A stretch of 64,000 bases of DNA from Candidatus Omnitrophota bacterium. Lineage in GTDB: Bacteria > Omnitrophota > Gorgyraeia > Zapsychrales > Fredricksoniimonadaceae. This document shows, in pieces, positions 8,980 to 45,944 of this stretch. The DNA is taken from contig JADFZK010000003.1 in NCBI GenBank assembly GCA_015232565.1, positions 540 to 64,539 on the forward strand, in the 5' to 3' direction. Within the stretch, counting starts at the first letter, position 1. Every line of letters starts with the position of its first letter. Position numbers and translations under genes: made by a program. The notes under the pieces are model-generated. The model saw nothing but the letters and a program-made list of their open reading frames with translations. It searched no databases and was not told the DNA's origin.

Positions 8980-9384
8980 GGTAAGCAAGGCCACGGGCAA
9001 AAGAGCAGCGACAGCCAAGCGGGAAATCCCGAGGTAAGAATTTCCCCGAACCAAAGCAACATTCTCGACCGTGCCCAGCACCGCATGGATCACGGCCACC
9101 CCGGCCTTACACAGCTCTTCATGCGTTGGCCTGACAAACGGACGATGAGCCTGCACCAGCGATTCTCCACTGGTGGTGAACAGCGCCCAAAGAGCGTGTT
9201 GCGGCATATTGGGATATTCATAGAAATCCCGCGTTCTTCCCAGGGCTGGATCGTAAAAACCAACAGCTATTTGCCGAGCATGCATAGCCAACACCAAAGA
9301 GAACCAGTCTGGATAATTGTCCAGTCTAAACACATTAGGACCAACTGCCTCGTCCGGCGAATTAAGCCTCCGTTGAGCTAACGC

Positions 9385-10722
9385 CCGCCCCGGGCACAAT
9401 ACGCACGCCTCGGCGAAGGCTTCGTTTTCTTCATCGGTGCTTTCGGGATAGGCCATGACCCGCGCTTCGTGGATAAGCGTCAGAAGAAGTTCTCGACGGA
9501 GGCTTGGGTCGGAGAGAAGCGCCGCGTCGCAATACAAAATTCCATTTCGGAAAGTTGCCCAGATAACATTAAATGGGCCGGAACGGATCTCGACCGTGTC
9601 ACGGATGCGGACCAGGGCCTCCGCAACATGCGAATCGCGCGATCCCACGCCAGCAATGTCTTCATTACAAGCCTGACGGAAATAATCATTCCGCACAAAC
9701 GCCGTCGGCGCACACCGCGCCAGATCCAGGCCAACATTCGTTTCGCTGGCATCCTGGCCTTTCTTGGCCCGGTGCGGATCCCGCGCTCCCTCATTATTTG
9801 TTATTCTACGACGATTCTCGACCAGGACCGGATTATCAAGCTCGTTGGCTATACTTTTGGCGATCTCACAGATCTGGGACAGGATCTGACTAATACGACT
9901 TGCCGTTACCCCCGCGCCTTCTCCTAATTCTCCCAGCTTCTTGCATTGCGGTCGACCATCATACTCGGCCAATAGATAATCCAGGACCAATTGCATTCCC
10001 TTATTATTGCCATACAGCCGTTTAATTCGGGCCCGCAGACCTTCGGTCACTCCCTTCACACCATCCACAACATCCTGCAAGAACAACTGGCGGGAACGAT
10101 CTTCCTGCATATCACTATCCCCGGCCGCCATCTCCCAAAACAAGGATTCATTAGGAGCTTCCGAATCATCACCCTGTACCGGCGCATCTACAGACACCGA
10201 ATGCAATAAACACCCCGCTTCCAGCGTCCCCGCGCGCTTCTTGGCAATTGCACCCCTGGGCAAATAAACGGTCCCGCTAAAACTTCGAAAGAAATCCACC
10301 AGAGCGCCTTCGGCCCGTCTTTTGGCAAAAGTGTCCAATGACGCATCGCTGGTAAAGTTATATCGCTTTACAGCCTCAATATATCCAGCTTGAACAATAT
10401 GCAACCACTCCTGAAGATCGGCCCCCGCAAATGATTTATTAAAATGCCTGTAAACGATCTTCATCAGATCCGGTTTCTTCAGTTCCAGAATAGCCACAAC
10501 CGCCTCTTCATCCCCCTCATTTATCAACACCGCCAATTGCACATCCGAAAGCGTTCCCAGATGAGCCTTCCAGTCTGTAAATGAATAACCTTTCTCCCTG
10601 AATAACTGCCGTGCTTCTGGCGCTAAAGCTGGAGGCACTGAAGTCTGGTCTTTTACTGCCGAACCCACATCAACTGCCGTTGGCTCTCCAACGGGAAGCG
10701 GCGCCAGGATCTCCTTCTCCAT
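9385..10722 (-). CDS. Sigma-70 family factor carrying C-terminal conserved module (copy B, about 9400-9790)
   Basis: ATG at 10722-10720 (MEKEILAPLPVGEP…) verified; region-2-like AVVAILELKKPDLMKIVYRHF…YIEAVKRYNF and region-4-like GVTASRISQILSQI, followed by the DPHRAKKGQDASETNV… module. Confidence 0.55.
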
Positions 10723-10724
10723 AA

Positions 10725-13200
10725 AAACCGCGCGCAAAGACTCGCCAAAGATCACCCAACCGTAACCATAACGATGCTCAGCTTTTACTATTTTACTTTT
10801 GGCGCATAATGAAAGAAACGAGCGCGAATAGCCCAGAACCTGCGCGGCCGTCAGACTGGAATAAACACCATTTGGCAGGATCTCGCTTCGCTGCCATTGC
10901 CGCGGCTGACGCACCTCGGCAAAGACTGCCGTAAGATCCGCTTTTCTCATCACATAAACCATCCGCCCTTCTTCACCCAGAACAGAAACAGTCCTGAACT
11001 CAAGTCCAAACTCAAAGATCGCCCGAAGACAACACCTCATTACATGCCTCGGCCAACGCCCGGGAAACTGGGCGATATTTTCATATACCGCATCACGCAA
11101 TAATACTTCTTCCGGCGTTAACTTCGCCAACAAGCGAACAGCCGGCCAATAATGAGAATTGTCTGGATCCAATGCCACACTGCCCAACTGCTGGCGCGCC
11201 TCTTCCCATCGACCAGTATCTAACGAAAGCACAGCCTGACGCCGTTGGAACTCCGCTATCGGGATCAACGTCGTAAATCCGGGATCCCGGACAAATATTC
11301 CCTGAGGAACATCATTCTCGATATCCGGCGCGCACAAAAAAGAATACGCAGCTGCGTCATACGCATAAACCACATAACCATGTGTTTTATCGACGACAGG
11401 TACAAAATACAGATCTTTCCCTCGCAATGCCATGGGCAAACCATTAACACGCAATGTCATGCCGGCGCAGGACAGGACATTAAATGTATGCGTTGTCCCT
11501 TTCTTCTGCCGATACGATATCCAGGGTTTAGGCTCAATATTGCGCCGATTTAAAGCCCATTCAAAAAAGGCTTTTTGCTGAAGATCAACCCGTTGAATGC
11601 CGGTTTTATCTACATGCACATACTGCCCAACCACGATCTCGGTGCCCATACCAGATTCATCCTGGCCATCCGCAAAATATTCAACCAAATCAGCCATCAC
11701 TTCGATCACCAGGCCGAATTCCTTGTCACGCCGCAAACACAACCATCCCGTTTTGGGAAACCAGGGTTCATTCATCAGAGAATACACACCGGGAGAAAGC
11801 GCAAAAGAGAGTTCCTTTGCCGCCGGATGCGCATGATCGTAAACCCCGGTTAAAACTGTCGCCAACGGTGCAAAGGCCCGCTGTTTATCCAAACAACGAA
11901 ACAAAAAAACCGGCACCACTGACGCCCATTCTCTTTCGCCAATCACATGATCCGGCGTAAACCTAGCCAACAGAATATCCAGAATGGCCAGATCTACCAA
12001 TACAAACCCTTTCCGTTCATAATACTTGTAGGTACTAACCGGTTTCACAGACCGCAAACGACCGTCATCAAGTAAAGGGCCTGATAACCTGTACATATTT
12101 ACTACCTGTCCATGATTAACATCCTCCTGAACGATCACCAGCACCCGGCCATCGGTCACTTGCTCATCATTGACAACTATCTGAACGGCCTGCCCCAATT
12201 GACGCCGGCCCAGATCAGTTTTAATCTGTGTTTTGTTAGCCGCTGATAAAGGAAACCCAATGACCGACGCCACACGACTCCCCTCCCGGTTATACACAGG
12301 CGATGCGACCCCGCGGCCTTTCAGCTTCAATTCAATGCCAGCTCGGGCATCCAGAATATCGAGCGCCCCGAGAAAGACAGGAACGACTCGCCCCAAATCC
12401 TCATAATATTTCAAGGAATATGCCGGAGCTGACCTAAAAGAAAGATAAACATTAATAACCACACCCTGATTAACATCATTCTCAACAACCAGCCTTACCG
12501 GCTCATCAACAGACAAGAACCCCCACGCCTGTGCGGCCGACCGAGGGCGTGGGATCTCGATAAAATCGTCTTCCCCTTCACCAAACCGCACCACAAATGG
12601 CCGCCGGCCATCCCCCCAGCGCACATTTACCGACATTCCCTTAAGGCACTCTTTTCCCAGTGCATACCTTACGATCTGCTCTGCCGGTGAACCGGAGACC
12701 AATGCCGTCCGGTCTTCCCTGATGTCTTTCTGACGTTGCACACCCCGGGCGAAGGGGCGACTTTTCTGGCGTCCAGTATTTTCGCTCACAAAACGCATGA
12801 TCTCACGGCCTTCAACAATATAATCGGTACCGCAAAACCTTTGTGCTTTCAGCCTTCCGCCACGGACATACAATTGGACTGAGGAGAGTGATACCCCAAG
12901 AAATAGATGGAAAACATGTGCGAGCTTATACCGCCGCTCCGGTATTATGTCTTCCAGCAACCAGTGACGCGGTTTCTCCACAGCCGCAATTACTTTAGGC
13001 AAGTCCGCAGCCTTAATGGCATATTTAGCAGACGAATCTAGTCGAGAATCCTTTACAACCCGATAAGAAATACCATACTCTTCCAAAACAAATACCGCAT
13101 CCTGATAACGCCGACTAATTTGACGACCCTGAGACATTTCCAACGGCAAGCCTTGTCTTAACCCATCCATAAGCATGATCTCCCCGTCCTGCAAAGGCAT
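10725..13200 (-). CDS. Large repeat-containing protein of unknown function (~820 aa)
   Basis: ATG at 13200-13198 verified (MPLQDGEIMLMDG…); internal repeats VVNDEQVTDGRVLVIVQEDVNHGQVVNMY / VVENDVNQGVVINVY. Confidence 0.4.
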
Positions 13201-13289
13201 AGGGTCCGGGACAACCGAGCCCTTCGCTGCATAAGAAAGATCGGCAACTGTCTGGCTTCCAGTTCCCTGACTATCAACATTCAAGGGCA

Positions 13290-16200
13290 CGCACTCTTCG
13301 GCGAAGGCTTCGTTTTCTTCATCGGTGCTTTCGGGATAGGCCATGACCCGCGCTTCGTGGATAAGCGTCAGAAGAAGTTCTCGACGGAGGCTTGGGTCGG
13401 AGAGAAGCGCCGCGTCGCAATACAAAATTCCATTTCGGAAAGTTGCCCAGATAACATTAAATGGGCCGGAACGGATCTCGACCGTGTCACGGATGCGGAC
13501 CAGGGCCTCCGCAACATGCGAATCGCGCGATCCCACGCCAGCAATGTCTTCATTACAAGCCTGACGGAAATAATCATTCCGCACAAACGCCGTCGGCGCA
13601 CACCGCGCCAGATCCAGGCCAACATTCGTTTCGTTGGCATCCTGGCCTTTCTTCGCCCGGTGCGGATCACCAGACAGGCTTACCCACTCCTGTAAGAACG
13701 CGGACGGGTCAATGCCCTCGGTGGAAAAGCCGAATTTTATGTCTGAAGCCCAGGCCGCTTTAAATGCCTCGGTCCAAATGCGCTGATGATCAGCCTTTTG
13801 GCCTGCGTCTAACCCGGCGACAGACTCTTGCCAAAGACGCTGAAACAACCTGGGCGCTGCAGCCCATTCTTCGGCATCGAAATTATCAACCGCTATTTGC
13901 GCGCCAGCCAGCGTAGGCAACACGCCTTCTTCCTCCTGGGCCACCAATAACGGCCAATATCCAAAAGTTTCTGAAAGCGGCCGGTTAAGGTCTTTAAGGT
14001 CTCGCTGTGCCCGACGAAGCAATCGCAATACTGATGGCACACGCAAAGCCACGCTGATCTGCGGTAGTCCTTGCGCCGCGGCTGCCAACTCGGGCGCCAG
14101 GGCGAAGATCGAATCCACCCCAACGACTTGGCCATATGCCAGCTTTACAGGCGGCTGTGCATTGGGTATAAATTTCCCGGTGCTCGGGTCTGACGTTTCT
14201 TTGGTATATTTCGACAACTTTACAAAATATCCATTCAACAATCCGGCCAGATCCTCACCGGCCAGATCCAAATGCAAAGCACCGGGATGATCGTAAAGCG
14301 TTTTACCATCCCGCACGGGCTTTTGTCCCCGCGATCTGAAATACATATCCACCGGAAACAGCACTAATGAATTTCTTAAGGCCTCTTTGATGTTTTGAAG
14401 AATTGTAGATTTTCCCGCGCCCGACGGAGCCGCCAAAAAGATCACTCCGCGCCGCGAGCCCAGGCGCTTCTTCCAGGCCTTAACCAGCTCCAGCACCTTA
14501 TGTTCACGCTTTCTGCGGTCCTTTTCAATAACCACAATCTGCTCAGCCCTGGCACTAGCTCCAGAAGGCCAAGTCGCCTTCGGGGACAATGGCGTCCCGG
14601 GCAACATGGTCAGGACACCGTTAACACTACCCAGGTCGTTTACTGAACTATCAAGATGATCGGCCTGAAGACCCGGAACCTTGAACGCAGAATGTTCTAT
14701 ATATCTGTAAATTTTCCCGAGTTTATGTATATGAACTAATACGGAAAGCGCATCGAGTTCATGCTGAAAAGCGTCCAGAGCCTCTTTGATAACGGCTGGA
14801 CCATCATTCGGCCAAAGCACAAAACAACTTTCGAGCGTAAAGATTGATGTGTTAAAAACATGATTGATAGCCCGAAGAATATGCCAAGGACCTTTTTGAA
14901 CTTTAACAAAATGTTTCAACTCCTCGATCCCGGCCTGGATCGCGTTGCTCGTCGCTGTAGAATATGGCTTACCCGCCAGCGCACTTATGCTCGCTAATAC
15001 CCGGCGACAATTAAGAATAAAGCTACTAACTGTCTGTTCTTTGTAAATGTTCCAGTTGTAATCGGCATGACATCGAACGGCAGCCTCGGGGCCGCTGGTA
15101 CGCGCCAGCCGGATCCATTCGAGGGCCTTGTTATAAAGCACCTCCCTTTCTTCCCGGGTTGAAGGCCTGAGGCAGACCACATCCCCTGCCAAAACTGCCA
15201 CCAGATCATGTTGATCTGCAAACCTCTGCGCCACCACACATTCCTCCCGCTCGGACGGAACCGCGTCGCGCCTGATCCCCAGCCATTGCTCGTTCTCCCA
15301 GCGCGCGGCTTCCAGAAACAACCCCCGCACAGCCCGGGCGCCCGACAATACAGCAGATTGCAACCGGGCAAACCACCTCTTATCCAGAGCCAATGGAGAA
15401 GATTTATCATTTAATCGTTCAACCCGCTCTAAAAGCGCCAAATGTTCAGACTTTTCCCGTTCGATATCCTCTGCTTTTCTAACACCAAATTTATCCTGAT
15501 GTCCGCGTTCCACCAGGCTCTGAATTTTCGCGTATGACAAATTAGGCACCGCCTGCCAAACACGCAGAACTTCCCTGGGAGGCGTAGTATCAAAAACACT
15601 GGCGTCATCCGGATTGATTGACGGCATTTGTCCGTTTAACAATAGCTGACGCGGCAAAATACGCGCATACCCCGATGACACCGGCGAAAGTATAGCCACA
15701 CTGGTAGGGTTTATTTCCAGAGAGATTTCATTTTGCGCAACCAAAACGGCGATCTGTCGAACATAACCCCTGGCAATGTCCACCTGATGTTCCGTCGCTC
15801 CCAACGCATATAAATGTTCCGGCGCGCAAGAAAACGCGGTCACATGTGCCAGACGGTCTGAACCAGTGACACATTCGCGCAGGATCCTGCCCAGGGCGTT
15901 TAGATAATCACGAACATATGTTTGCGGATCACCATACAAACCCTCACCCCAGGTTTCTCCAATATGACAAGTCATCCCCAATCCCGCTAAACGCACCAAA
16001 CGCGAGATGACAGAACCGATCCAGTTAAAATAATCCCGCTCAAAACCAATACTGCTGGCACCCGCCACAAAAGAACGCTGATCTACTGTTAACCCGTAAT
16101 AAAAACGCACGAACTCACACGCTTCGCGCACAGCCAATCGGCGCGCTTCGTAAGCCATTATCAGAAGCCCTATTAAAACGTCCTCATTTACTGATCCGCC

Positions 16201-17277
16201 ACGGGCTATTTGCCAGGTTCGCAGATCTTCCCAAAAGATGGCAAACTCACGAACCGACTGCTCCGGCGTAAGTCCCAACACCTTTATATCCATTTCGGCC
16301 GCCAGTCCAGACACCCGCTCGCACACAGCGGCCAAGGTAAGCCCTGTATACGGCGCCAGCAGACTTAAACGCTTTTCCTCGGGCAAGGACAATACCCGAA
16401 GTAAATGATCCTTGCGAAAGCCTTTAAGTAAAACGACCGACGTATGACCCCGCGTATCCTTCAATACACGCTGAGCCATACCCAGCATAAAAGGCGACAG
16501 GTCAAGATCGGTCACTTCGATATACCTTAACTCACACTGCCTCGCCATATGCATAATGCCTTCAAACGCCATGGCCGCACGCTGTTGCGGGTCACCGCCG
16601 CTGACGGCTCTGACGAACGCCACCGCGCGCTCGAACTCCTCGAAACGCGCTTTCTGCCGATCCCGCACGGTGACAAAAGCTTTTAAATTCTTCACCGCAA
16701 CGTCGAAGGCCGCACCCATACGATCGGCCGGAAAACCAACCAGCTCCGCAAAAGCCGCATCCGCCTCTGTTGGCAAAATAGCGTCCACAGGATCCGGATG
16801 ATGCATGTACCAGACAGGATCACAACTACGGCCATCAATAGCCCGGGAAGTCAGAACAAATCTACGACGAGCAACCGGATCATCAAGCAAGCGCGGCAAC
16901 AATTGCTCCGCATAAGCCAACCCGGAGACATGTTCATGAACGATAGCGTAAGGCAGCCTTGCCAAACAGGCTTCAACTGCCAACAACAAAGCAGGATCAT
17001 CTATCGCACGATCAAATAGCAATGCCAGGTCGACGAGAGAATATTGCGGCATCCCGCTCAAAACACCGGGTAAGCAAGCCAAATCGGGCTTTTCACCCTT
17101 ACCGTCGGGAGACTGGCAATACCAAAAAACCGGAGGAGCAGTGGTCCCTTTTTCCTGGGGTCTGGCGCTTAAAACCAGAGCCCCCTGTTTTCTACCGGGC
17201 ACCAACATGAAGGGCAATACAATGCATAAAACAGCCACCAGGACCGCTAGAACCACCGCCCCGAATATGCTTTTCAT
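13290..17277 (-). CDS. Multidomain protein: signal/TM, adenosine/AMP-deaminase-like domain, uridine-kinase-like P-loop domain, C-terminal conserved module (copy C, 13290-13680)
   Basis: ATG at 17277-17275 verified (MKSIFGAVVLAVLVAVL…); MTCHIGE and SINPDDASVF resemble adenosine-deaminase metal-site and C-terminal signatures; Walker A IFLAAPSGAGKSTIL at about 14410-14450 verified. Confidence 0.5.
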
Positions 17278-17289
17278 CTGCCCTGCCTG

Positions 17290-17928
17290 GCCCGGGCCAC
17301 TTTTGGAGGAAGAGCCTTTATCGGAAGGCACAAAGTCCTGTGAGATGATCTCAAGCTTGGGTTTGCCACCGGGGAAAGTGATGACCAGGGTTGTGCTGTA
17401 ATCACTGCCTTTCCATTTCTTCGGAAGCCCGTCCTGGATGCCCAAAGCCGCGGCAAACGCCGGCAAATAATCGTGGGTCCAGCACACCACCACGGTCTTC
17501 CCGGCCAGCGACCGGTCCGCCAGCAACGCCGCGGCGGTTAATTCCGGGCGTTCATCAGGAGACAACGTGCGCACTTCCTGGTTGAGAGCCAGCGCGGCCG
17601 GTGTTACGGTCTGCAAAGCCCGCACGCTCCGCCCGTGACGAGTGGGCGCAGAAGTAAAGAAAGCGGCTGGCGCGCCATTGGTACCCAGCACATCACCCGC
17701 AGTAAGCCATTTTACCAGCCAGGCGGCCCGCTGACGGCCGACGGCAGAAAGGTTCTCGTCGGACTTTTCCACCGGCTTCTCCGCATGACGAAACAGGATA
17801 ATCCGAGCCGGAAGCGTTTCAACACTGGCACGAGAAGCAAAAACGGAAGAAGAGGGAACTGTCGATTGATGATCGGAAGAAAGCGGAGAACGGCCGGAGA
17901 AACCACATTTTACGGCTGTTGCCAGCAT
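17290..17928 (-). CDS. Histidine-phosphatase (phosphoglycerate-mutase-like) family protein with signal/TM
   Basis: RIILFRHAEK (RHG/RHA catalytic motif); ATG at 17928-17926 verified. Confidence 0.5.
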
Positions 17929-18042
17929 TACGATAATAATAAACACACCGGCGAGTTGATGAATATGCTCCCTTAACACAAAAGCCGCTTCGCGCGTTAG
18001 CGCCGGCCCCGCCCTGATTCGGTCAGCCTCCAGGGACACCGG

Positions 18043-18149
18043 CCGGAGCTGGACCTTTCCGGCAGGATGCCGGGTCCAGCGGAGTGCCGGAGCTGGACCT
18101 TTCCGGCTGGATGCCGGGTCCAGCGGAGTGCCGGTCCCAGTCAGACCGG
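18043..18149. repeat. Tandem pair of a 44-nt hairpin-forming element (CCGGAGCTGGACCTTTCCGGCAGGATGCCGGGTCCAGCGGAGTG x2) plus a short CCGGTC…GACCGG palindrome; REP- or terminator-like
   Basis: Stem GCTGGACC/GGTCCAGC read directly; further copies at 45878-45940 and 51983-52045. Confidence 0.6.
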
Positions 18150-18169
18150 ACCGGCCCAGTCGGCCGGGT

Positions 18170-18987
18170 CGGTGCGGCTCAATATTATCCCGCTCCCAAA
18201 ACGGAGCCCTCAAGACGTCAATAAAGACCGCGTCCTCACGAGGATAAAACTTGTGCATCAGCACCCCCGACAAAAACAATCCCGCCAAATACGCGGCCAT
18301 ATCGTAATTATCGAAAACACCTTTAACACCGCTGAGGTCACTCAGATCAAATAACGGACTACCCGCCTGGGAATATTCAACCCAAACGATCATACTAAAG
18401 AAGAATAAAGTTACATAGCGGCCAAGCTTGGCAAAAGCGATCTCCAAAGGAAGTTCATCAACAACATTGGCGAGACCGGCTATTCTGGCCCGACCATTAC
18501 CAACAAACACATACAACCAGCGAATAAACGCATAACCCAGAAATATCACACATGTAATACCCGGCAAGAACAGAAAATCGTTCAGCCACCAATGGTCAAC
18601 ATTTGCCCAGAAGCCGGATAACGGCAGGTACCAGCCCCGGAAATGCTCCCGCAGGACCGCAAAAACCGCAATAACAGCGGCCAGCGTCAACTGCCGGTTT
18701 AAGGCCCACCCGGAAGGCCGCACAACTGAACGATACTTATTCCCGGATTCCTGAAAAGCCAGGCCCTCAAGGATCCCCGCCAATACAACCACGACCAACA
18801 CCGCTAACGGAAAATATAATGCCACATCGCCAAGGATTTGGATCATCCGGTCGAGCGAATCCAGATTTAAGCCGCTCCAAAAAGAACCCGGCATCAAAAA
18901 GCCCGCCCCGGCTAATTGAGCCCCCGCCGCTTTACCCAGCGGACGATCGGATCGGGCGGGATCGGACGAGTTGACGCTCCTCCGCAT
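18170..18987 (-). CDS. Polytopic membrane protein
   Basis: ATG at 18987-18985 verified (MRRSVNSSDPARSDRPLGKAAGAQLAG… then several hydrophobic helices). Confidence 0.45.
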
Positions 18988-19044
18988 AAATGCTATATTT
19001 ATAACGCTTGCACGCAAGAACGATATTAACTGGAGGATGACTAA

Positions 19045-19272
19045 ATGTCTTTTGACCGCATAACCGCCGACCCTTCCATATGCCACGGAAAACCTTGCAT
19101 CAAAGGGCACCGGATCATGGTGTACCAGATACTTGACATGATTGCGGACAATGTTTCTTTTGACGAGATCATTACCGATCACTTTCCCCAACTGACCCAG
19201 GAAGACCTTGTAGCCTGCGTTGAATACGCGGCTTATATAGTACGAAACGAGGAAGTTCACCTTGCCCGGTAA
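19045..19272 (+). CDS. DUF433-family protein (antitoxin-like)
   Basis: DPSICHGKPCIKGHRIMVYQILDMIADNVSFDEIITDHFPQLTQEDLVACVEYAA; proper TAA stop. Confidence 0.75.
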   Translation: MSFDRITADPSICHGKPCIKGHRIMVYQILDMIADNVSFDEIITDHFPQLTQEDLVACVEYAAYIVRNEEVHLAR

Positions 19273-19633
19273 TTGGCGCATACTTTGCGATGAATGCGTA
19301 AGTTTAACAACCATCCAGGCATTGCGCGGTGCAGGAGTCAATGTCACCACGATCCTGGAACTTGCGCTGGCCTCAGCCAAAGACGCAGTCGTATTCAAAC
19401 AGGCAATCCACGACCAGCGCATTCTGTTAACTGAAGACACCGATTTTGGCAACATAACGCTCTTCCCGCCCAGCCTCCACCACGGCATTATCCTGTTACG
19501 TTTCCGCCGCAAGTCAAAAGACGCACTCCATGCCGTCCTCCTGGCATTAATTTCCAACACGGATCCCGCTGACCTGAAAGGCACCCTGGCCATAGTTGAA
19601 GCAGATGGATACCGTCTCCGCCAGTGCAATTGA
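19262..19633 (+). CDS. DUF5615-family PIN-like protein (partner of DUF433)
   Basis: Overlaps the DUF433 stop; canonical DUF433/DUF5615 gene pair. Confidence 0.65.
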   Translation: MPGNWRILCDECVSLTTIQALRGAGVNVTTILELALASAKDAVVFKQAIHDQRILLTEDTDFGNITLFPPSLHHGIILLRFRRKSKDALHAVLLALISNTDPADLKGTLAIVEADGYRLRQCN

Positions 19634-19789
19634 AGCGCCTGGCCGCAAGTGCCAAACACCACTACTAAGACCGTTATCGGAAGATATAATGCCACATTGC
19701 CAAAGAATTGGATCAGCCAATCGAGCGAGTCCGAATTTAATCCGGTCAATAAAGAGCCCGGCATCAAAAAGCCTACCCCGGCTAATTGA

Positions 19790-21045
19790 GCCGCCCCCGC
19801 CGCTTCACTCAATGAACGATTAGCGCTGAACCTTTTCGGCTGGATGTCGGATTCAGCGGCGTGTCCGGGGCAATCAGAATGGTCGGCACTATGCCCTGTA
19901 CCCGTGGACCATTCAACGTAACCTTGCCGGAAATCCCACAGATCGGGCTCTTCCGGTATTGCTTCAATATGTTTATCCAATGCATCCGGTCGCGCACTTT
20001 CGCGGGCCGGCTGTTCTGCCGGAGCTGGCTCTGTCTGTTCTGATTCTGCCTGGTCCGGCTTTTTGGGCTCACGGCTTTTTTCTTCTTGCTCCTGCCTCTG
20101 TTTTAACTGCGCCTCACGGGCGATCTCGGCGTCCAAGTTAGCTTTAGTAAATTCTCCTGGCGGCCTCACAGTCAAACGCCGGACGTCAAGTGTCTGCCAA
20201 TACTTCTGGCGCAACAACATTCCCGCCATCCGTTCCACAAAGACCGGATCATTATTCATAGCCCCGAACTCTGAGGCCCGCGCCCGGCGGATCAGATCGG
20301 CCTCCTCTACAAAACCCCGCTCGGTCAATAACTTAAGTGCATGCTCGTACTTCCAGCAATTATCAGCATAAAATCTAACTCTCCCGCCCAACCTTTCAAA
20401 CTGATCCATCTGTTGCTCGAGTGTTAAATCTTGCAACGAAACACCCGGGTTATTTAAGGCAAAGGTCTCCTGAAAAGCAGGATGGGAGAACACTGTCTTA
20501 ATATCATCCGCAAAACTTTTATCCACCGCGGCGGTATCTTCCGCCGTCCACTGGCGGTCTTCAGCCTTTACGATCTCAAAACGCTCACCTTCGCGCACTT
20601 CACGAAACCGGAAAAAGTGATGCAACCCCAGAACGTGATCCCACGCCGGTTCATACACCGCATATCCACCGGGTGCCGGACCCGCCAGTGTCGGGCACTG
20701 GCCATTTTCATCGGGCGCACCGAGCCTGTACCTTTTAAGCGTGCAATATTGTTCAACAATACCAGTTATACTATCCTGCAAGAACCACAACGCTTCCTGC
20801 GGAGAAGCCGGTGCCCAACCACGATCCCCATCCAAAAGAGAAATAATACTGTCCAAATCTGTAGGGACATGCGCATCGATCAGGAAATTCTGATGGGCCG
20901 GCATTAAGAAAGCTCCCAACAGATCGAACGCTTTTGCTACTGGCGCCGCTGCCGCGGTCACTTTTGCTACAACAGCCGCGGGACCAGTAAACCCCAAAGC
21001 GCTGGCCACACTGGCACATAAACCCAGAAAGTGCCTCCGGCTCAT
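19790..21045 (-). CDS. Tat-signal protein of unknown function with E/Q/K-rich C-terminus
   Basis: ATG at 21045-21043 verified; MSRRHFLGLCASVASALGFTGPAAV twin-arginine signal. Confidence 0.45.
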
Positions 21046-21949
21046 CGAAGTGATATCACCGGGGCCCTGGGACGGAGGAACATCGCCCAGCGGATTATCG
21101 TGGCAGTCGGGATGGCGGCCTACGTTTACGACTTCTAAGCAATTCTCAATCTGTTTATATATATAACTTTCGGAAGCGTCTTGTAATTTAAGCTGTCGTG
21201 CCAGGGCCATCAAGGCTTTAAGGATGCTGGGCGCCGTTTTTACATTACTCATTTCGCCGGCAATAATACGCCCCATCAATCTGGCATCATTCGTATTAAA
21301 CTGCCAGTCAAGCGTAGCGTGTAACAAGGCCAAACCCGCCTCGAGCGCGATCCGGTGCGCCGATCCGATGTCCCCGCTGGCTAGAAAGACCTCGGCCCGT
21401 TTCAATTCCTGATGCAGAATAAACCGCAAGGTCGCGGCCGCCTGTTCATTACGCGCTAAAGTGCGATTCTCTTCCAGAAAGATAATATATGGATCTATCG
21501 GCCGGCTCAAATTTTGCGCTGGCTCGGGCCTGACCTTGCCTGTCCTCCTGAGCCAATGCCAGAAATCAAGATCGGCGCACAGAGCGTCAAATTCGTTGCT
21601 ATACAGCTCGTGACCCAACAACAAGGCCTGGATCTCGGCCGGCAGATCCAAAGCCGCCTGTGCGATCTCGATAGCGCCCGCCACATGACGCATATAGATC
21701 CTGGTCCGAAAACCATTTACCAACCGAACAGGAATTCGTTTATTGCGCATACGCTCGTTCAATTCAGCTTCATTGTAAAACTCCTGAACCATTGCCACCG
21801 CTGCCTGCAGATCCGGAAGATCCTCCCCTTCCAGAGCAAAAAAGCCATTCGTTATAGTCAACTCAAATTGGGCCAGAACTTGCGTGCGTTCAGTCGGGGA
21901 TAACCGACAGTCGCTCTGGCACGGATTGTTATGGTCTCCCGGCCCGGCG

Positions 21950-24050
21950 GAAGGCAACTTTTTGTAGTTTCTAAGGTCACGAAAAGCTTCGTAACAATTA
22001 ACCAGCATTACAAACACAAAGAAACCAAATATAGTCTTTATAAACCAGCCTTCAAAAATAACAAAGAAGGCCGCGTCCACCGCGGTGATCGCGAGCACTC
22101 CGATGAGATTGCAAGTTAACACCATTCGGCGGCTGAATCCGGCAACACCATCCTGGCTCGATTTGAGCACACCCCATATCCGTAAAAGTTTGCCACCGTC
22201 CAGCGGACACACCGGCACCAGGCTCAGGATCAAAATGATGACGTTAAACTTAACAATACCCAGGACGAAACCCGCCGAACACCCCAGCCACACCAACCCG
22301 GCCGCGGCCGCTATTGCAAGATTCACCAATGGCCCGGCGGCAAATATCACGAACGCTTTACCGGGCGCGTTCTTCTCCAGATCAGACAGTGTGTCACTAT
22401 GCGCAGGCGCGGCAAAAGAACACACCCCCAGCGTAACGCCATTACACCCGGCCCCCTGGCGCTTCATGGCGATCGCATGCCCCAATTCATGAGCCAGCAC
22501 CGAGGCCACAATAGTCCACGCCGCAACCCCGCCGCCGCCCAGCAAGATCATCAGGTACGTAGTCCAGTGAATATATACCGGGAACCCGAACAACCACGCC
22601 GTACCGGGGATGCGTAAAGCGCCTTTACTTACCAGCCATTGGCCAATATTCTCCAGGGAGCCGCCCAGGAAGACCTTGATGCCAAAAGGGTCGAATAAAG
22701 CGCTGTTGCCCGGCCCCAACTGGAATGGCGAGGGCCGGACAATTAAGTTCTTGTTTTCCAGGAACTCGCGTAGAACTTCGATCAGCTCTCTGGACACGGT
22801 TGGTTTAACCCGGCCTTGCAGAAGGCCCGGGTAATCAGGATACCGCAAAAGAAAAAGATCTTCCCAGTCGTACAATCCAGAAAACACCAATGCTGCCGGG
22901 ATTCTGTGTATCAAATCAGAAAGCTTGAGCTCACAGGAATCGCCAGAAACGCCAAGATCAGTTATGAATATTACGACCTGTTGATCATCGGCCAGCAAAA
23001 CATCTACCGCTTCCCGATAAGTTTCCACCAATCTGACCTGTACGCCATACTGACCACCCAAAGCATCCTCAAATACCCTTTTAAGTCCGATATATTTAGG
23101 CGCCTCGTCATCCAGCCAGAGAATAATGCGTTTGGCGGGCAATAACTCCGGAGAGGTATTCCCGGACGGCGCGTCCAGGCGGGCAACTTCTGACCCTTCC
23201 GACACCGGCTCTTTTCGGGCGGAGATGGCCCGGGTTTGCGCAAGGAGAGCCTTAAGCTCAGCCAGAAATGACTTATGGTAAAAGGGCTTATCAACAATAG
23301 CATTTAGAAAGCCCGGCGGGAAATCGGCCAGACTGACCGCATTTAACTCACCGTTAAGAAAGATTATCCGTACATGCGGGAATTCTGCCCCCAGGCTATA
23401 GGCAATCTCAAGCGCCCGGGCCAATGGCATATCGAGCACCGCCACATTGGGGCAAAAACAGCCGTCTTTCATTCCAGAGAAAGTAGCAAAGCCTTTTACC
23501 GCCAGATCCGCGCCGGCCTGAGCCTTGATCGCGGTAATTAAAGACCGTTCCTCCCGGGGATCCATCCCGATGATCGCCACTCTCTGAACATTACCGTTCT
23601 CCAAAGCCGCCTCCGGGCTCTCCGGCGGCTGAACCAATCCGGCTTGCGCCGCGGCGTTCCGAATACCTTCAAACATGACATATGGCTTAATATCCGTTTT
23701 ATCAAACCAGCGCATCCTCGTAACATCGCGGCCAACAATGTTAATTGAACTAGCTGAAGAATAAAGATAGGACGTAATAAAAAAGATCAACGGAATATTC
23801 CCTGCCATAACCCGGAAATCAACAACCGCTGTTTCATCACAATCCACACCCACGTCCAAACAAAGAACCTGAAACGCTCCTTTCTTCAATTCCGTAACGG
23901 CCTCCGCCAAGCTTGCAACAAAGACCACTTCAAATAATTCCGGAGCCATTACATCGGCAGCAATACGTTCGTACCCTTCACGAATTTCAAACTGGTCTTC
24001 CACCCACAAAACGCGCACCTTGCCCGCGCTCTGAACCAAGGGTAAGGCCG
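21950..24050 (-). CDS. Protein with three receiver (REC)-like domains followed by an M50 (site-2 protease-like) intramembrane metalloprotease domain
   Basis: VLAHELGHAIAM at about 22470-22500 verified; three CheY-like blocks (KVRVLWVEDQ…, RVAIIGMDP…, KRIILWLDDE…) between about 22900 and 24000. Confidence 0.45.
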
Positions 24051-24299
24051 GTTCGACTGGTTGATCGACAGGGGGTATATCCCGCTGGTGATCTTGCGCC
24101 AATAAAGCCTTTTCAATGGTATCCCAAAGCTGAAATGCCCATTTAGGCGCGGCTGCCGGGATATCGTAACCCAGGATCTCGCCGAATACGCCATTACTCC
24201 AATAGGTTACTGCCCGATCAGCAAGATAAATGCCGTCGGCAACTTCCCGCCAGGACAAATTCCGCAAGCCATCCGCCAGGACCGGGCCCGCGGCATATA

Positions 24300-25900
24300 G
24301 GAAAGACCGCCCGGCGTCTTTGGCAAGAGCGCCGGCATATTGCACATTATGCGCATTCACCGACCCGGACCCGATATCCACATAAACCGCGCAACAGGAA
24401 CCCAGGCCCTGGGCCCCGCCTTCCTGGATAAAGCCGGTCGCCGCATCCCTGGCCACCCGCATATATGGCCGCCGTCCGCCGTCCATATTGTCGCGCTCGA
24501 AAGCCCGGCGCCGTTCAACCGTTACCTCGGGCAAAAAAACCACTACCGGTAACCGCAGACCCGCGGCCGGTGTGGCGCCGCGCACCACCGGCGTAGCGGC
24601 CCAGGACGCATACTCCAACAAGCGGTCAGCTTTAACCACCGGTTCATGATCAAAATCGCCAATATCAAAACGGATCTGCAAAATATAAAACGTACCGCAT
24701 TTATCATTTTCGCGGTCGGCAATATAACACCACTCCACATCCAGTTCATGACCGGTAAGGCGGGCATAAACACGTCCCACCAGCGTTAAAAAGACCGCCT
24801 GGGCCCGCGACAATGGCGCCGGGCGGGTTACTCCGTCCTCATCCCATTGTTCCCCGTCGGCAACGATGTTCAGCATACGCTTCTCGTCCGTGCCGCGGCG
24901 TAACACTTTACCGTCGATGCCGATCTCATCCGGACATTCTTTGTAAGTAGGGCGATAATCAACCACCGGCAAACCATTCCGGTCTTCTAGCGAGATATAA
25001 TGTGCCACATTAGCTTGTGGGGATTTGACCGCCTGACTGGCATCACCATAAACCGCTTCGATCCGCGTATGACGATACCGACCGGTGGTCAACGTTCCGG
25101 AAACATCGGCCCGCAAGAAAGGCTGAACCACCAGCGCAATGCCCTCCTGCCCGGTGACCGGCCGGCCGCTGATACCCGCAACCGGGCCGATCAAGGGATC
25201 GCTGGAGCCGATCCACATTATTTCCAAAGCATCGGCAAAGATCATGGCCGCGGCGCGGGGCGCCAGATCCGGCCCGGGAACCCGCAAAGATAAAAAGACC
25301 CCGGCCAGGTTTTGGCGCTGATTATCTTCCCGCCGGCCGCTGGAACGCACGATAAGCTCGCCGTCAAAGCCTACATAGCGCTTGATCTCGACCTTCATAT
25401 AAGAAGCCAGATTATCCGAGAACTCCATTTGCGCTATCAGGTCGCGCAACTGCCGGACCGTGTCCTGGTTAACTCGCCCGTCCACCGAAGGGCTGAGCGC
25501 CAGAATAGTGTTCCCGGCATCGATCAAAACCTTGTTATGAGAAATAAACTCGCTCCACACATCCGGGATCCGAAAAGTCAGGCTGAGGGGCTGTTCCAGC
25601 CTAAACTGGCCCGCACTCAACCAAGGCAATGCTGCCGCGGCCAACATATTGCTTAGCGACTCACGCACTTCATAGATCAATTTCCTGGATATAACTATCC
25701 AGGCGCTTTTACCGCCCTCTTCCTTCACCAATTCCTCAAACCATTTATCTATCGGCTTAGGCAGCAGACTTTTCCAGAACGTCTCCCAGGATGGCAAGCA
25801 CATACCCAGCAAAAACGGCGGAAGGCTGTAGAAAGTATTATTAAGCGTACCCAGACCCGGCGGGAAAGCCGGCTCGCAGAGAAACGCAACTTTAAGAAGC
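24300..25900 (-). CDS. PEP-utilising-enzyme-like protein (PPDK_N-like nucleotide-binding domain plus possible mobile domain)
   Basis: GELIVRSSGRREDNQRQNLAGVF at about 25330-25380 verified; TM/leader GGFSLLRNWPLILIGLAVVGL upstream; may be contiguous with the REC-M50 unit. Confidence 0.4.
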
Positions 25901-28900
25901 AAATAGACCAGGCCAACGACAGCCAGCCCGATCAATATCAACGGCCAGTTACGCAGCAGCGAAAATCCGCCTTCGCCCCGCTCTGGCGCCAGCACCGGGT
26001 TGATCCCGGAATTTACCGCAGTGCCAGCCGCCAGTCTTTCAGCAGCCGCCCTGCACGCGCCGCGGCCAAGGACGCTATCCCGGCCAGCCTGATCGATCCG
26101 GCCCAGAGTCAGCACCACACTCACCAGCCAGCGCAGGAGCGCCTCCCTTTGCCCGTTCTTATCCTGCTCCACCCAGGCCAAAAGAGTACGGCTGTCCTGG
26201 GAACCAAATTTGCGGGCCCACCCGTAGAGCCAGTTGCGACACTGCGGCGAGCCGGCCATTGCCGCCGCGTGCGCTTTATTGCCATTATTGCACTCCATGG
26301 TTAACAGCCAAAAACAACACTGTAGATCAACCAGGCGCACATCAATATCCAGGTTCGGGAAGGCACTAAAATTCAGGCCGGAAGCCTCGAATGCATAACA
26401 CCAGTTATAAACCGATTGCCGGCCGGTGCCGAGCGCGCGCGTGGCCGTAACTATATTTCCATTATGCCGAGCCACCATTTTGACCGCCAGAATGTTGCGC
26501 AGGACGTCTTTGACAGAACCGGCAATATTGGCAAACGCCTGTTTCATTACCCCATGTGCCTGGTCCGGGAAATAGGCGCCATTAGAGACCACCGCCAGCT
26601 CCCAGCCCGGGTGTAAAGCATGCTGAGTATTACCAGGCGCAAGCAAAGCCTGCGCGGCGGCCGCAAGCTCGGGATCGATCACCACTTGCTCTGCCTGCGG
26701 TAGAAGTTTCACGCCATCCAGGGCCACCAGCACACCGGCCAGCCATTGCAAAACCGGCCAGCGCCGCTCGTTGGCGTTAACCCAGGCGGGCAGATCGATG
26801 TCGTAGCTCAGGCCTTCAGACTTGATCCAGCGCGCGATATATGAGCGACACGCACCCAGTTTGGCCGAGGCCCTCGCCGGCACTCCCCGGCTGGCGGCCT
26901 CGGCAAATACGCACAAGGCCTCTTCCACCTCTTCCCAGGTTATCAAGGCCGGCAAAGCCGGAAAATAAGACAGCTCCACCGACAAACCCCTGTCAACTCT
27001 AAGGCGCCGGTAAAATGAAGCCGCCGGAACGCTGATCCTTTGCCAAGCCCGCTGATGATCATCACCTTCCGCCGCTAATGCCTGACGAGCCAACACCGCA
27101 AAGACCGCCCGCTCGGGCACATGCATCAGCCGGTAATGCCGGTGAGGATCATCAACACTATCCGGAAGCCGGGCGCCGATCAGGTCGATGTCGGCAGCTT
27201 CATCCAACGCTTGCCAAAGAGGACGATAAAAATGCACCTCGGCTCTCGGAACATCCAGCCCGCACTCGGCATGCCAAAGTATCGCACCATCCGGAAGCAT
27301 CTTGACCTGCCGCACAAGGACTTCATAACCCAAGGATGGATCCGCTTCCACCAGGATCCTGCCCGCTTGTTGAAAGGGCAAAGCCACCTCTGTATCAGCG
27401 GCAAAAATAGCTAGCCCGTGCATATAACGCCGCGCCAGTTCTTTAGCCCGGCGCACTTCGTCCAGGTCGGGGCGCGTGCGGGCCGCGGCCCGCAACAGGC
27501 AGGTGCCGGCAATAAGGTCTTCGACTATAAATACCCGCAAATGCTCCAACAGCCAGACCAAAGCATTGGTCGAGAAGGTCTTTCCACAGATCCCGATACT
27601 GGCCGCCAGCCTGGCCGCCACTGCGGCGAGTTGAACACTGAGCCGGGCATTACTCGCCATATCATCCCGCCACACCCGGCCGTCTTGACCGACCGCCGCG
27701 TATACATGCGATGCCTCGCCATTAACCTGCAGACCAAAAGCCATAGCCTGTTGACCAGCTTCGCTTCGCCAATAATAACGATGCCGTATTCCTTGCTCCA
27801 CCTCCGGCATTTGCAAGAAGCCCTCTTTACAAGCGCGCAACATTTCAATGAAAGGCTCATCGACCTCCAGCCCCTTTACTTTACCTTGCTCGATATAGGC
27901 CAAAGCCTCTGAAAGAAACAAAGGATGCTGACGATAAAACCGGTAAACCGTATCCTGCCAGGCCTCCAACTCACGATCCACCCAACAGCACTTTAAATAA
28001 TGCGAACAAAACTCATGAAAGATTATTCCCAGTGCCAGACAATCAGGCAATCGTAATATGGTACTGCTCAAGATTATTCCACCGGGAAAAGCCTCTCCTG
28101 TCAATTCAACTGGCGAAATATCTAGGGTTGTTTGACTCTCCGAAATGTAACCACGATCTGCCAAAAGCCTCAGCCAACAGGCAAGGTTGGCAAGATCACT
28201 GTTAGACAGTCCTTCTTGCTCTATCACCTGCAAACGTATACGGCCGTTCATCACAACCTTAAAAGTCGCCCGCTTTGCGCGATCATTGGGAGTAAGCTCC
28301 GTAACCCGCATTGGCATACGCGCCCGGCCCACCACCCGTTCGCCATTCCTGCGCCAGGCCGCGTTAAGATCCCGGATCGGTTGCGCAAAGGGCGCTCTGA
28401 CCAGATTTTCCTGGGCACAATGCAACACAGCGTCGGGAATAAGCAGGTCAACCGGGAAAATAACGCTCCAGGTGAGGTTGGCCAGCACGCCGTCGGCCCA
28501 ACTGACCGGTTGATCGTTAATGCCAGATAACGACATGTTATAAGTCCGGCCAACGCGATCCAAATGCGCGCGCATTGCTTTAAGACTTGATGTCAACTCA
28601 CGATTAACATAGGCAGAATTTTGCGCTGCGGAAAATAATAACTGGCCCAGTTTTTCCCTGACCGCCCTTTGCTCCAGACTTAGCTCTCGCACCCGGTTTC
28701 TGGCCGCTTGCAAGCGTTCTTCATCCTCTGTACTTCCCGACTTCCTGCCAGGCCCGGAAGACGGCCGCTTTCCCGGAACAGGCTTGGGAAGATCAAGGCG
28801 GCTGGTAAAAAGCGTATTGCCATCTCCCAACCCTGCAACCACCCCGAGCCTGGCCATCAGAAAAGCAAAACCATTCAAACGCCAATACCACCATGCCCAA

Positions 28901-29640
28901 ACCGCGGCCAGCATTAAAGCGATAGCCCAATGCCCGCCTGTAACGCATAAAAGAACGAACCCGCCCGCCAGGGGATCGGACTGGCAAACCGCACGACCAG
29001 CGGAGGTTTCTTTCGGGCTCTCGACAGGTGTCAAGACCGCCAGATTATTTAAAGTATCGATCAGCCACAGCAGGTCCTTCTTCATTTCATCCGGTTGTTG
29101 GGCGATCCATCTGGCTAAAGACGGCTCGGCGTCGACATTAAACCGGTTGCGCCAAACTGATACGCGCTCCCGGCTCCAGCCCAACAGCTCCACCATTCTG
29201 CCAGTATCGCCGTCGGTCTCCTCCAATGCCAGCCGCAATAAACATTCCCTGACATTATCCCTGGTCCTTCCCGTAGGGAAAAAGGAAAACCCTGTCCCGT
29301 CGCCCAGCATTCTTTGGGCCAGCGTTAAATACTTACGGAAGGTGGTATCCGCCATATCCAGCATTTTATACGCCGACTTCTGCTCGCCTGATGAAAGCTT
29401 TACAGCCTTAAGGGCAATAACGGCACACACCATATCATCCACTGATACACGACTATCACCGGCCCCGCCGAGAGCCTTGATCCGGGCCGACGCTTTCAAC
29501 AAAGCTTGCCGAGCCTTCTTAAGGGTTCTATTAGCAATAACTACGCCCGGAGCCTGCCGCGCCGCTACCACCATAGCCCCTGGACTCGCAGAGTGCTGGC
29601 TGGCTTTAAATAATTCTTGCAACCCGGGGTCTTCGTTAAC
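25900..29640 (-). CDS. Large protein(s) downstream of sigma-70 number 1: anti-sigma-like single-TM segment, then a region with weak LanC-like motifs (NGAYFPDQAHG, SVYNWCYAFEASG)
   Basis: Translation of the open frame; hydrophobic GGFVLLCVTGGHWAIALMLAAVWAWWYW after the sigma C-terminus; LanC assignment tentative. Confidence 0.3.
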
Positions 29641-30669
29641 CAGGCCCGCCAGGATCGCTCTTAACTTGACTTTAGCTTTCTCGATCCCCTGCCGGGCCCA
29701 CTCACGAGTTTTGGGCGGCGAGGACATATCCGCAATTTCCTGCAGTATCATTCTCTGGCCGCCTTCCAGGCCGAAGTACAGCACCAGAAAACGCCGGTCA
29801 AGTTCCGACAGCATTTGCAAAGCCCGGGCGAACAAAGCGCCATCCACCAAAGGAACATCACGCTCCGGGGACGCCAGCAGTTCATACAGACAAGCCTTAT
29901 CATCGCCAACCGGGCTGTCTAAAGAACAAGCCCGCTGTAAAGCCATAAGACGGAGAAATTCAATTACCTCTTCCACACTATATTCATGGCCGGCCTCCTT
30001 GAGCCCCGCCGCTATCTTAGAAGCCGATATACCGGGCCGGTGCAGATCTATGTCCAGAGTCTGATCGACACGCTTTTTAAAACGCCGCAATTTTCTACCG
30101 GCAGCGGTCTTCACCCGAACTATGCCGATGGCGGCTTCCAAAGCACTATAGATGAATTTCTTTATCCAGTAAGCCGCGTAAGTCGAAAACTTGCCTTTTT
30201 CCGGATCGTATCTCGCCGCCGCTTTCAGTAAACCCAGATTACCATCGGCAACAAGTTCCATTAATGATAACCCGGCCATACCTTCGAAATCCCGCGCAAT
30301 CTTTATAACCAGCCTCAGGTTACCAAGCACCAGTTTCTCGATCGACTGGTGATCCTGTGGCCGGGCATCCAACGCGGGTTTGCTGGCCTTAATATCCCTG
30401 CCCAGACGCTCTTCCTCTTCCTTGGTAAGCAATTCGTTCCCCCCAATGATCCTCTGGCAATACCATGACAGGCCAGCCAAAGCCAGCGCAGTATCATCAT
30501 TACTGCGCCTGCGCTCTCGCGCATCCCTCACGGGAACACGAACAGCCAGGCCATCCTCAGGCTCCTCAGTCTCCCCAGACAATTCATCGACAATATCCCG
30601 CAACGCCTCCTCTAGTGCCTGCTCATCTTCCGCGGGCACGGCCGTAAGGTCAATCTTGCCAGCCCTCAT
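29640..30669 (-). CDS. Sigma-70 family factor (number 1), core regions 1.2 to 4; possible N-terminal extension up to about 31190
   Basis: LRLVIKIARDF…GLSLMELVADGNLGLLKAAARYDPEKGKFSTYAAYWIK (region 2) and LQEIADMSSPPKTREWARQGIEKAKVKLRA (region 4); ATG at 30669-30667 verified. Confidence 0.6.
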
Positions 30670-31269
30670 GCCCAGGATCTCACCGGCTGCCCGTTCGCGT
30701 CCTTTTAACAATTCTGCGATATTGACCTTGCCATCCGACCAGTCACTGTAATGCTCCTGGATCAGCATGTTTGTCTCGTACGAAGTAGGACAGGGGGTGC
30801 GTGATGTAAGAGCCGCAACGATCTCGTGAACCAGCACCAGCCGGTCGTTAACTCCGGAACGGATAAACACCTTCAATAGCCTGTCGCCTTCTTTTAACTG
30901 CCAGCAACCGGTATGCGGGAGGCTCCCGGCATTAAAAAAGCGCACCTCGACTTCCACCTGATCCATCAATTTCGCGATCCGGGCAAATAAAGCCCGATGC
31001 TCTCTTTCTCCGCGGCCATTCCTACCGTGCAAGAAGCTCCGCACAAGTTTAATTTCATAATCGCTGTTACTCCAAACAGTATGCCGCGGCTGCTTCTTGA
31101 TAGCGGCGGCGATATCCCGGTCGACCTGCTCCCGCGTAAGGCTGTCGTCCCCGTCGGCCGACAAGTCCGCGCGAGCACGCGGGGTATAAATCAATTCCCT
31201 CCTCGAAGCTTCGCCTGTTTGACAATGCCAGGCATGGATGTTATAGTTAAATGCGAAAGGAAGCAGAAG

Positions 31270-31828: not shown

Positions 31829-31831
31829 ACC

Positions 31832-32008: not shown

Positions 32009-32076
32009 CCACCCAATAACGTTCTTGGTTGAAATGCCACCATACGGATGTTACACTTCCCTAGAGGTGACAACCT

Positions 32077-45940: not shown

Positions 45941-45944
45941 CCGG

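Follow-up and report, generated by a model that had tools for sequence, protein, structure and literature searches.

The window analysed here is a stretch of 64,000 nt from a Candidatus Omnitrophota bacterium (assembly GCA_015232565.1, contig JADFZK010000003.1, positions 540 to 64,539 of the forward strand). Nearly all of it is filled by one giant open reading frame (ORF) on the minus strand, predicted to code for a multi-pass, many-domain membrane protein, and complete type II toxin-antitoxin (TA) operons occupy the opposite strand without ever breaking the giant frame. In the ORF list of the window the giant ORF is a single entry (3307..63927, minus strand, 20,206 aa), and its frame is devoid of stop codons between 3310 and 64000 (~20,230 codons), compared to 546–1167 stops in the other five frames. 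As the frame is open to the window end, the 5' end of the giant ORF lies outside the window. The codon-usage score, calculated in 300-nt windows, ranks the giant frame first throughout with the exception of five stretches (~3.3–4.0, 6.2–7.0, 19.2–19.8, 31.3–32.2, and 49.0–49.6 kb), where a plus-strand frame outscores it. A Kyte-Doolittle scan gives 45 hydrophobic segments in the giant protein, and its Pfam matches are sparse (Sigma70_r2, Peptidase_M50, PPDK_N, NUDIX, and HTH only). Five plus-strand cassettes lie inside the giant ORF, i.e., DUF433/DUF5615, HicBA, antitoxin/PIN/HicB, a MazEF-like pair and one that is decayed:

3307..64000, minus strand: giant ORF, frame open up to the window end, best codon-scoring frame outside the TA cassettes
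18971..18999, plus strand: sigma-70-like promoter of DUF433/DUF5615, TTGACG-17-TATATT, TG extended, with GGAGG 8 nt before the ATG
19045–19272, plus strand: DUF433 antitoxin-like gene (Pfam E 1.7e-22), codon-aligned antisense to the giant frame
19262–19633, plus strand: DUF5615 (PIN-like) toxin gene (Pfam E 7.7e-22), overlapping the DUF433 gene
49118..49632, plus strand: HicBA cassette with promoter (49118–49146), HicB (49171–49398, Pfam E 7e-11) and HicA (49402–49632, Pfam E 1.5e-16)
31219..32256, plus strand: four-gene cluster with promoter (31219–31247), antitoxin (31270–31440), PIN (31418–31828, PIN_3 Pfam E 1.6e-6) and HicB-like gene (31832–32008)
Second unit of the same cluster, plus strand: promoter (32029–32057) and solo antitoxin (32077–32256)
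6199..6823, plus strand: fourth, MazEF-like cassette with promoter (6199–6227), AF2212-like antitoxin (6247–6468) and PemK/MazF toxin ORF (6416–6823, PemK Pfam E 5e-12)
3057..3955, plus strand: fifth, decayed cassette with antitoxin (3057–3284), frameshifted PIN (3244–3679) and HicB (3713–3955)

As is typical of type II TA systems the cassettes carry small adjacent or overlapping genes, which Pfam assigns to known antitoxin and toxin families; DUF433/DUF5615 is, following published predictions, presumed by us to be a TA pair. A promoter scan covering the four intact cassettes, but not the decayed one at 3057–3955, found in each a sigma-70-like promoter, i.e., a consensus match only, with 9–11 of 12 consensus positions and a 17-nt spacer, located 20–46 nt before the antitoxin ATG, and a Shine-Dalgarno sequence is present in each of the four. 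The sequence-only reading had recognized three of the cassettes and overlooked the MazEF-like pair (6247–6823) as well as the decayed antitoxin/PIN/HicB set (3057–3955). In public gene tables the nested genes are absent in some cases and the antisense frame in others. Gene callers choose between the giant ORF and the TA genes and do not return the two together, which leaves protein databases without the defence or addiction genes that are nested in giant genes.

The absence of stops opposite the TA genes is specific for the giant frame. Over the five cassette spans (3,519 nt, 1,173 codons) the giant frame has no stops, whereas the other two minus-strand frames have 62 and 64. All 11 nested genes are free of antisense stops in the giant frame and in no other antisense frame; for example, the two remaining antisense frames contain 4 and 3 stops under the DUF433 gene, and 24 and 14 over the 1,072 nt of the four-gene cluster. 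The TA-type genes of the window that are located outside the giant ORF (248–1519) contain 2–10 stops in all three antisense frames. When synonymous codons were resampled with the genome's own usage, the probability that the giant frame would be stop-free was 0.007 for the DUF5615 gene, and the product of the per-gene probabilities for the 11 nested genes was ~2e-11. None of the nested genes is in the most restrictive phase, in which a Phe codon ahead of a codon with A as its first letter would force a stop. This points to a giant gene that is translated straight through each cassette, yielding junk loops, and to selection for uninterrupted translation, against premature termination and polarity, acting either as a filter at insertion or by later purging of antisense stops. 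Some 5–6% of the giant protein would then probably be junk translated from antisense TA genes, a point to consider when the domains or structures of giant proteins are analysed.

The arrangement is not restricted to this window. The three nearest homologues of the DUF5615 protein (50–56% identical) are encoded on three contigs, L002, L003, and L004, and two of the three also lie in a stop-free antisense frame. In L002 (2,432 nt, 42% GC, two TA pairs) the antisense frames contain 0, 59, and 49 stops over the entire contig, and in L003 (896 nt, 57.5% GC) 0, 12, and 14, whereas in L004, where the genes are not nested and have an ordinary context, all three antisense frames contain 9–11. The phases of the genes relative to the open frame agree with those in the window. 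The second nested pair of L002 (1260–1848), in the same stop-free antisense frame, combines DUF5678 with a retropepsin-like gene (weak match to gag-asp_proteas) and may be an undescribed TA-like pair. A similarity between the hydrophobic flanks in L002 that was seen at the protein level had no support from the DNA and was set aside as evidence.

When the junk peptide (window 18949–19650, minus strand) was used as query in an exhaustive search, it matched stretches in the interior of five predicted proteins, with lengths of 6,753, 2,880, 6,200, 6,657, and 5,502 aa (E 1e-26 to 2e-7). Four of the five are proteins from metagenome-assembled genomes of 'Candidatus Omnitrophota', all four partial. 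One of these was confirmed at the DNA level. Its contig, L005 (GCA_015233765.1), carries an intact DUF433/DUF5615 pair and an intact HicBA pair antisense to a frame without stops for at least 15.6 kb, a scaffold gap included. The two different cassettes of L005 lie between equivalent flanks: the upstream transmembrane linkers resemble each other, and downstream both have a 64-nt segment in common (97% identity), which begins 86–88 nt from the ATG of either antitoxin. What looked like a frameshift in L005 is explained by the gap, which consists of 100 N (8641–8740) and has an exact 55-nt duplicate flanking it. The gap splits the deposited giant ORF in two: a 'partial 5'-nucleotidase' of 2,880 aa, and a 7-kb remainder (8479–15619) that has no gene call other than the nested hicBA.

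Three of the matching proteins (P0004, P0006, and P0007) likewise contain further copies of the segment that flanks the junk on its upstream side; P0004 has five linker copies, at least one of which is followed by junk. P0007 (JGI, 6,657 aa) contains at aa ~1040–1130 and ~4280–4370 near-identical junk stretches (YSSIASLILLTVSFWVLPWLQHPL..GQWATIYPSSPFSSTIL) that resemble the antisense HicB peptide of window positions 3713–3955, each preceded by a copy of the repeated linker, and HicB-type cassettes therefore appear to be nested there repeatedly. The stop-free pattern over nested cassettes was seen in four independent assemblies. Contig scans of the genome collection with DUF5615 and with a profile of a 131-aa module of the giant protein (see below) gave no match, and hence no related genome in which the orthologous site is empty; exact-protein look-ups of four window genes were likewise without a match. 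The single giant ORF that a metagenome scan yielded, the distant L001, had no nested TA genes in its 14 kb (Pfam matches in none of eight antisense ORFs of at least 100 aa). Taken together, these results give good support to the nested arrangement without stops and to its recurrence.

The window and L005 have the antisense-TA segments in common and nothing else, and the same is true for the window compared with L002 and L003. The cassette is therefore the shared part, which is either mobile or more slowly evolving. Related cassettes in the same antisense phase among unrelated host modules point to a cassette lineage living in giant genes.

The cassettes are positioned next to repeated segments of the giant gene. 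In its reading direction a hydrophobic linker precedes the cassette (19719–19627, 49770–49663, 32457–32212, and 6975–6838), and in five of five cassettes a repeated host segment starts within 36 nt of the 3' end, the gap from the toxin stop to the host repeat being 4–36 nt. The chance of such adjacency in all five is ~1e-9 by a rough estimate. For the DUF433/DUF5615 and HicBA cassettes a second linker copy lies directly on the other side of the insert. The flanking segments of the three cassettes that had been noted before are:

18779–18947, minus strand: left direct repeat of the DUF433/DUF5615 cassette, giant-frame linker ...AQLAGAGFLMPGS...MIQILGDVALYFPLAVLVVVV
19651–19820, minus strand: right direct repeat, the transmembrane linker preceding the antisense cassette in the giant reading direction
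47558–47694, minus strand: linker repeat L1 of the HicBA region, ...PGAFIAAVGAALGCPALITAGAILYGFSVLILH...
49637–49773, minus strand: linker repeat R1, beginning 4 nt past the hicA stop codon
53762–53898, minus strand: single linker of the paralogous segment 51886–55001, an insert-free site whose left side matches L1 and whose right side matches R1
47695..49636, minus strand: insert relative to the paralogue, 1,942 nt, consisting of a host module of ~490 aa plus the antisense hicBA
32272..32451, minus strand: transmembrane linker adjoining the four-gene cluster, with its partner at 25789–25968
25789..25968, minus strand: distal partner linker, 6.3 kb downstream in the giant reading direction

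The sequence-only reading placed the DUF433/DUF5615 pair between two copies of the 5' end of a membrane-protein gene. The two copies are real (~82% identity over ~165 nt, blastn E 1e-38), but they are internal linkers of the giant ORF. The right copy begins 18 nt past the DUF5615 stop codon, no further copies were found, and the two bracket a cassette of 703 nt with no host module in between. Between left and right copies the ratio of nonsynonymous to synonymous substitution rates (Ka/Ks) is 0.6 and the synonymous divergence (dS) 0.27. The antisense translation of the AT-rich promoter region of this cassette (19044–18985) is itself hydrophobic, so that insert and one duplicated linker might, speculatively, contribute two helices and leave the downstream topology unchanged; similar hydrophobic stretches are visible in the L002 and P0006 sequences.

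HicB/HicA was described as lying among copies of a ~120-bp segment, and these were indeed located, at 47558–47694, 49637–49773, and 53762–53898, along with a fourth, more diverged copy near 50897–50976. The repeats are 128–137 nt long and 89–91% identical. Segment 51886–55001 is a paralogue of 45781–47694 plus 49637–50873, with one linker where the cassette-bearing copy has two. In an alignment read by eye the differences between L1 and R1 are concentrated in one half, beside an identical run of 29 nt, which fits a crossover within the linker but does not prove it. The linker copies have a Ka/Ks of 0.19–0.28 in the giant frame, indicating purifying selection, and a dS of ~0.3, indicating old duplications. 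The segmental duplication within the giant ORF extends over 45541–47850 vs. 51562–54051 and 49636–50898 vs. 53761–55026, and it includes two alpha/beta-hydrolase-like modules. Its DNA identity is unequal on the two sides of the insert (~80% vs. ~89%), which suggests separate histories or gene conversion.

For the antitoxin/PIN/HicB cluster the reported duplicated flank is clear as protein (32451–32272 vs. 25968–25789, 50% over 60 aa, E 9e-11) and weak as DNA (local score 42 vs. a shuffle maximum of 25), and again it is not a 5' gene fragment. The transmembrane segment that precedes the MazEF-like cassette in the giant direction (6975–6838) is a copy of 9039–8887; when 6838–6975 was compared with 6115–6195 as a possible pair of flanking repeats the DNA score of 27 was not significant (shuffle maximum 29), and the similarity is at most a possible remnant. 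The decayed cassette, finally, adjoins a copy of the 131-aa module at 3904–4296. The repeats of the three cassettes noted before, which had been taken for 5' ends of neighbouring genes, are hydrophobic linkers inside one minus-strand frame that is stop-free from 3310 to the window end; since this one frame is open and has the best codon score outside the cassettes, what had been called 'neighbouring genes' belongs to a single giant gene.

The combined explanation that we consider best, with a probability of roughly 0.62, is a giant gene with nested TA cassettes that are read through and exchanged at linker repeats. Each cassette enters the giant protein right after a hydrophobic linker, and this linker or the end of a module recurs elsewhere in the ORF. 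Cassettes, alone or joined to host modules, would be gained, exchanged and lost by homologous recombination between linker repeats; Campbell-type integration or unequal crossover would leave one linker copy on each side and would need no transposase. In agreement with such events a homologous copy is found on each side at 18779–18947/19651–19820 and 47558–47694/49637–49773. Today, on the other hand, the repeats share just 82–91% identity, and no circular intermediate or donor was observed. That the duplications arose by homologous recombination at linker repeats comes somewhat short of an even bet. The proposal that TA modules move as cassettes held to the extent that they are discrete, related cassettes being found in unrelated giant ORFs and the paralogous site at 53762–53898 being empty. 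Two routes were proposed for this, recombination at gene 5' ends and insertion with target-site duplication. The data agree better with recombination, at repeated segments of the host gene, than with transposition, but the sites are internal linkers.

Several observations weigh against this explanation. First, the repeats are old (dS ~0.3), merely 82–91% identical, and have few long identical runs. Second, periodic linkers (four copies in 47–54 kb and five in P0004) may be plain module boundaries. Third, read-through translation is predicted from the missing stops. Fourth, two pieces of the giant ORF, used as queries in word-indexed homology searches, yielded no homologues. Fifth, L002 and L003 are short contigs, so that a giant ORF is not demonstrated for them, and there is no hydrophobic segment beside the L003 cassette.

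The main rival builds on the second of these points. The flank copies would not come from insertion at all; the modules of the giant protein would be separated by similar linkers, and TA cassettes would survive only in the loop after a linker and so always be found beside a repeated segment. The linker of the HicBA region, with its four copies, and that of P0004, with five of which at least one is followed by junk, are what such a modular protein would show, as is the purifying selection on the linker copies, and the 'inserts' of the HicBA and antitoxin/PIN/HicB regions also hold 0.5–5 kb of ordinary host modules. This account is difficult to reconcile with the DUF433/DUF5615 repeat, which exists in just two copies bracketing a cassette without a host module, and with the paralogue, whose single linker contrasts with the two of the copy that bears the cassette. 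Even then adjacency within 36 nt in five of five cassettes requires targeting or strong selection. It is considered unlikely, if still to be reckoned with.

It is also conceivable that the TA genes are ancestral intergenic residents that were engulfed when neighbouring genes fused through loss of stops. The modules do look like ordinary enzymes and regulators (sigma-70, PPDK_N, NUDIX, M50) and the cassettes are located at module boundaries. Such fusion would, however, leave the duplicated linkers unexplained, and it does not account for related cassettes in giant ORFs without detectable similarity of host modules, for two different cassettes at equivalent sites in L005, or for the empty site in the paralogue, which makes it improbable.

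Transposed or integron-type elements, with the flanking repeats as target-site duplications or attachment sites, would resemble what is found in having direct repeats around discrete cassettes with their own promoters, as in Vibrio chromosomal integrons (PMC13108822). The repeats of the window are 130–170 nt long, diverged (dS ~0.3), protein-coding and site-specific in sequence, and they lack attC-like hairpin folds (z -2.4 to +1.0, local stems only). There are no terminal inverted repeats, and the flanking repeats, at 82–91% identity, are not the short (2–15 bp) identical duplications expected of a transposon. As the codon score reveals no non-TA coding region inside the giant ORF there is no transposase or integrase in those 60 kb. 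Neither an IntI integrase nor attI was found within the window; only the TA genes score as coding off the giant frame, and the large plus-strand ORFs, scanned non-exhaustively, had no Pfam match. Both the integron gene cassette, for want of an attC-like site by repeat folding, and the transposon or insertion sequence with target-site duplication were therefore rejected, and elements of either type are very improbable here. A long frame that is spurious, or whose product is not made as a single unit, with stops lacking from the cassettes by coincidence, would be in line with the incomplete public gene tables. It is scarcely credible given 0 stops in >20,000 codons, among them the 1,173 of the cassettes, for which the other two antisense frames show 62 and 64, and given the same pattern in four assemblies.

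The host gene is of a known kind. Giant multi-domain membrane proteins of Omnitrophota have been described as 'archaeovorins' and multi-enzyme giant proteins (10.1101/2023.11.21.568195; 10.64898/2026.06.07.730766), and the ORF of the window, with >20,000 codons, is like them in its many transmembrane helices and in the enzyme domains (PPDK-like, NUDIX, kinases, and peptidase) scattered along it. With at least 20,206 codons and 45 hydrophobic segments it exceeds the >10,000 codons, with many transmembrane helices, that characterize Omnitrophota giant genes. Most described archaeovorin-type giant genes encode a divergent SecA-DEAD domain. Pfam found no SecA-DEAD match in the 20,000 aa of the giant ORF within the window; as the 5' part of the ORF is outside the window this does not exclude archaeovorin-type membership. 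No sequence homology to the host modules of the window was found. Text searches of the two papers gave no passage on opposite-strand genes in a giant ORF, their few mentions of TA or toxins concerning other matters, and wider literature searches gave no description of nested or antisense TA genes in giant genes. The components, i.e., type II TA cassettes and Omnitrophota-type giant genes, are known but the arrangement appears to be new.

Foreign DNA that is kept inside ORFs, in frame and in permissive loops, where it becomes part of the host protein, is known from the Rickettsia palindromic elements. These are short non-coding palindromes, whereas the inserts of the window are operons of 0.5–1 kb expressed from the opposite strand. 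To our knowledge fully nested opposite-strand operons with both strands constrained over 0.5–1 kb are very rare in bacteria, and here the arrangement recurs many times, with strong statistics. The sedentary chromosomal integrons of Vibrio contain TA cassettes that have promoters of their own, lie between repeats of ~120–130 nt and have been shown to penalise cassette loss (PMC13108822). The cassettes of the window likewise have their own promoters and are scattered and repeat-flanked in a long repeat-rich array. In contrast to the integrons there is neither attC nor integrase, the flanking repeats are coding linkers that differ at each site, and the 'array' is a single opposite-strand coding frame that must stay open. 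By analogy a stabilising, addiction-type role as for the Vibrio TA cassettes (PMC13108822) is plausible. It is tempting to speculate that the TA cassettes, as addiction modules, may penalise deletions between the internal repeats of the giant gene. A bolder proposal, and one that is held tentatively and judged somewhat less probable than not, is that there is a TA lineage specialised for the antisense strands of giant genes, which would keep one frame stop-free, dock after linkers so that the junk peptide forms a loop without harm to the host protein, move between repeats and organisms, and, as addiction modules, either stabilise the genes or enforce the retention of new modules. If true, this would be a new gene-within-gene symbiosis that is invisible to current gene callers. 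The arrangement is relevant to how genes of 60–400 kb remain intact and acquire modules, and it is directly testable in existing Omnitrophota genomes, metatranscriptomes and metaproteomes.

The end of the giant ORF, where its frame closes at 3307, coincides with the decayed cassette, which in antisense translation shares 40% identity with the 31.5-kb cluster. A minus-strand frame at 2802–3290, distinct from the giant frame, continues with homology to the region after the MazEF-like cassette, and 2937–3092 is 81% identical to 6184–6339, duplicating the promoter of that cassette and its first antitoxin codons. This suggests that the end of the giant gene is a zone of recent frameshift or decay. 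Further repeated elements of the giant ORF are:

3904–4296, 9400–9792, and 13288–13680, minus strand: three copies of a 131-aa module (DPHRAKKGQ...LIHEARVMAYPES.DEENEAFA)
18042–18129 (two tandem units), 45880–45919, and 51985–52024, inside the giant ORF: 44-nt palindromic unit

The copies of the 131-aa module have 95% and 74% aa identity, and a homologue with 35–38% identity is found within another stop-free giant frame, that of L001 (13.9 kb, 40.6% GC). Many similar 'HE..H'-type motifs are dispersed across the giant protein, and modules carrying them could be peptidase-like modules for processing. The palindromic unit (GCTGGACC...GGTCCAGC arms) has four copies at no more than one mismatch, where none would be expected by chance, all of them within the giant ORF and leaving its frame unbroken; a degenerate copy (19819–19862) adjoins the outer end of the right repeat of the DUF433/DUF5615 cassette. 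The unit looks like an element of the repetitive extragenic palindromic or miniature inverted-repeat transposable type that is tolerated in frame.

The ~3 kb of the window outside the giant ORF are also rich in TA-type genes, all on the plus strand:

248–487, plus strand: small upstream ORF
477–905, plus strand: PIN gene
978–1353, plus strand: frameshifted PIN-like gene
1337–1519, plus strand: small ORF

In the same region an exact repeat on the scale of 70 nt joins 782–851 and 2461–2530.

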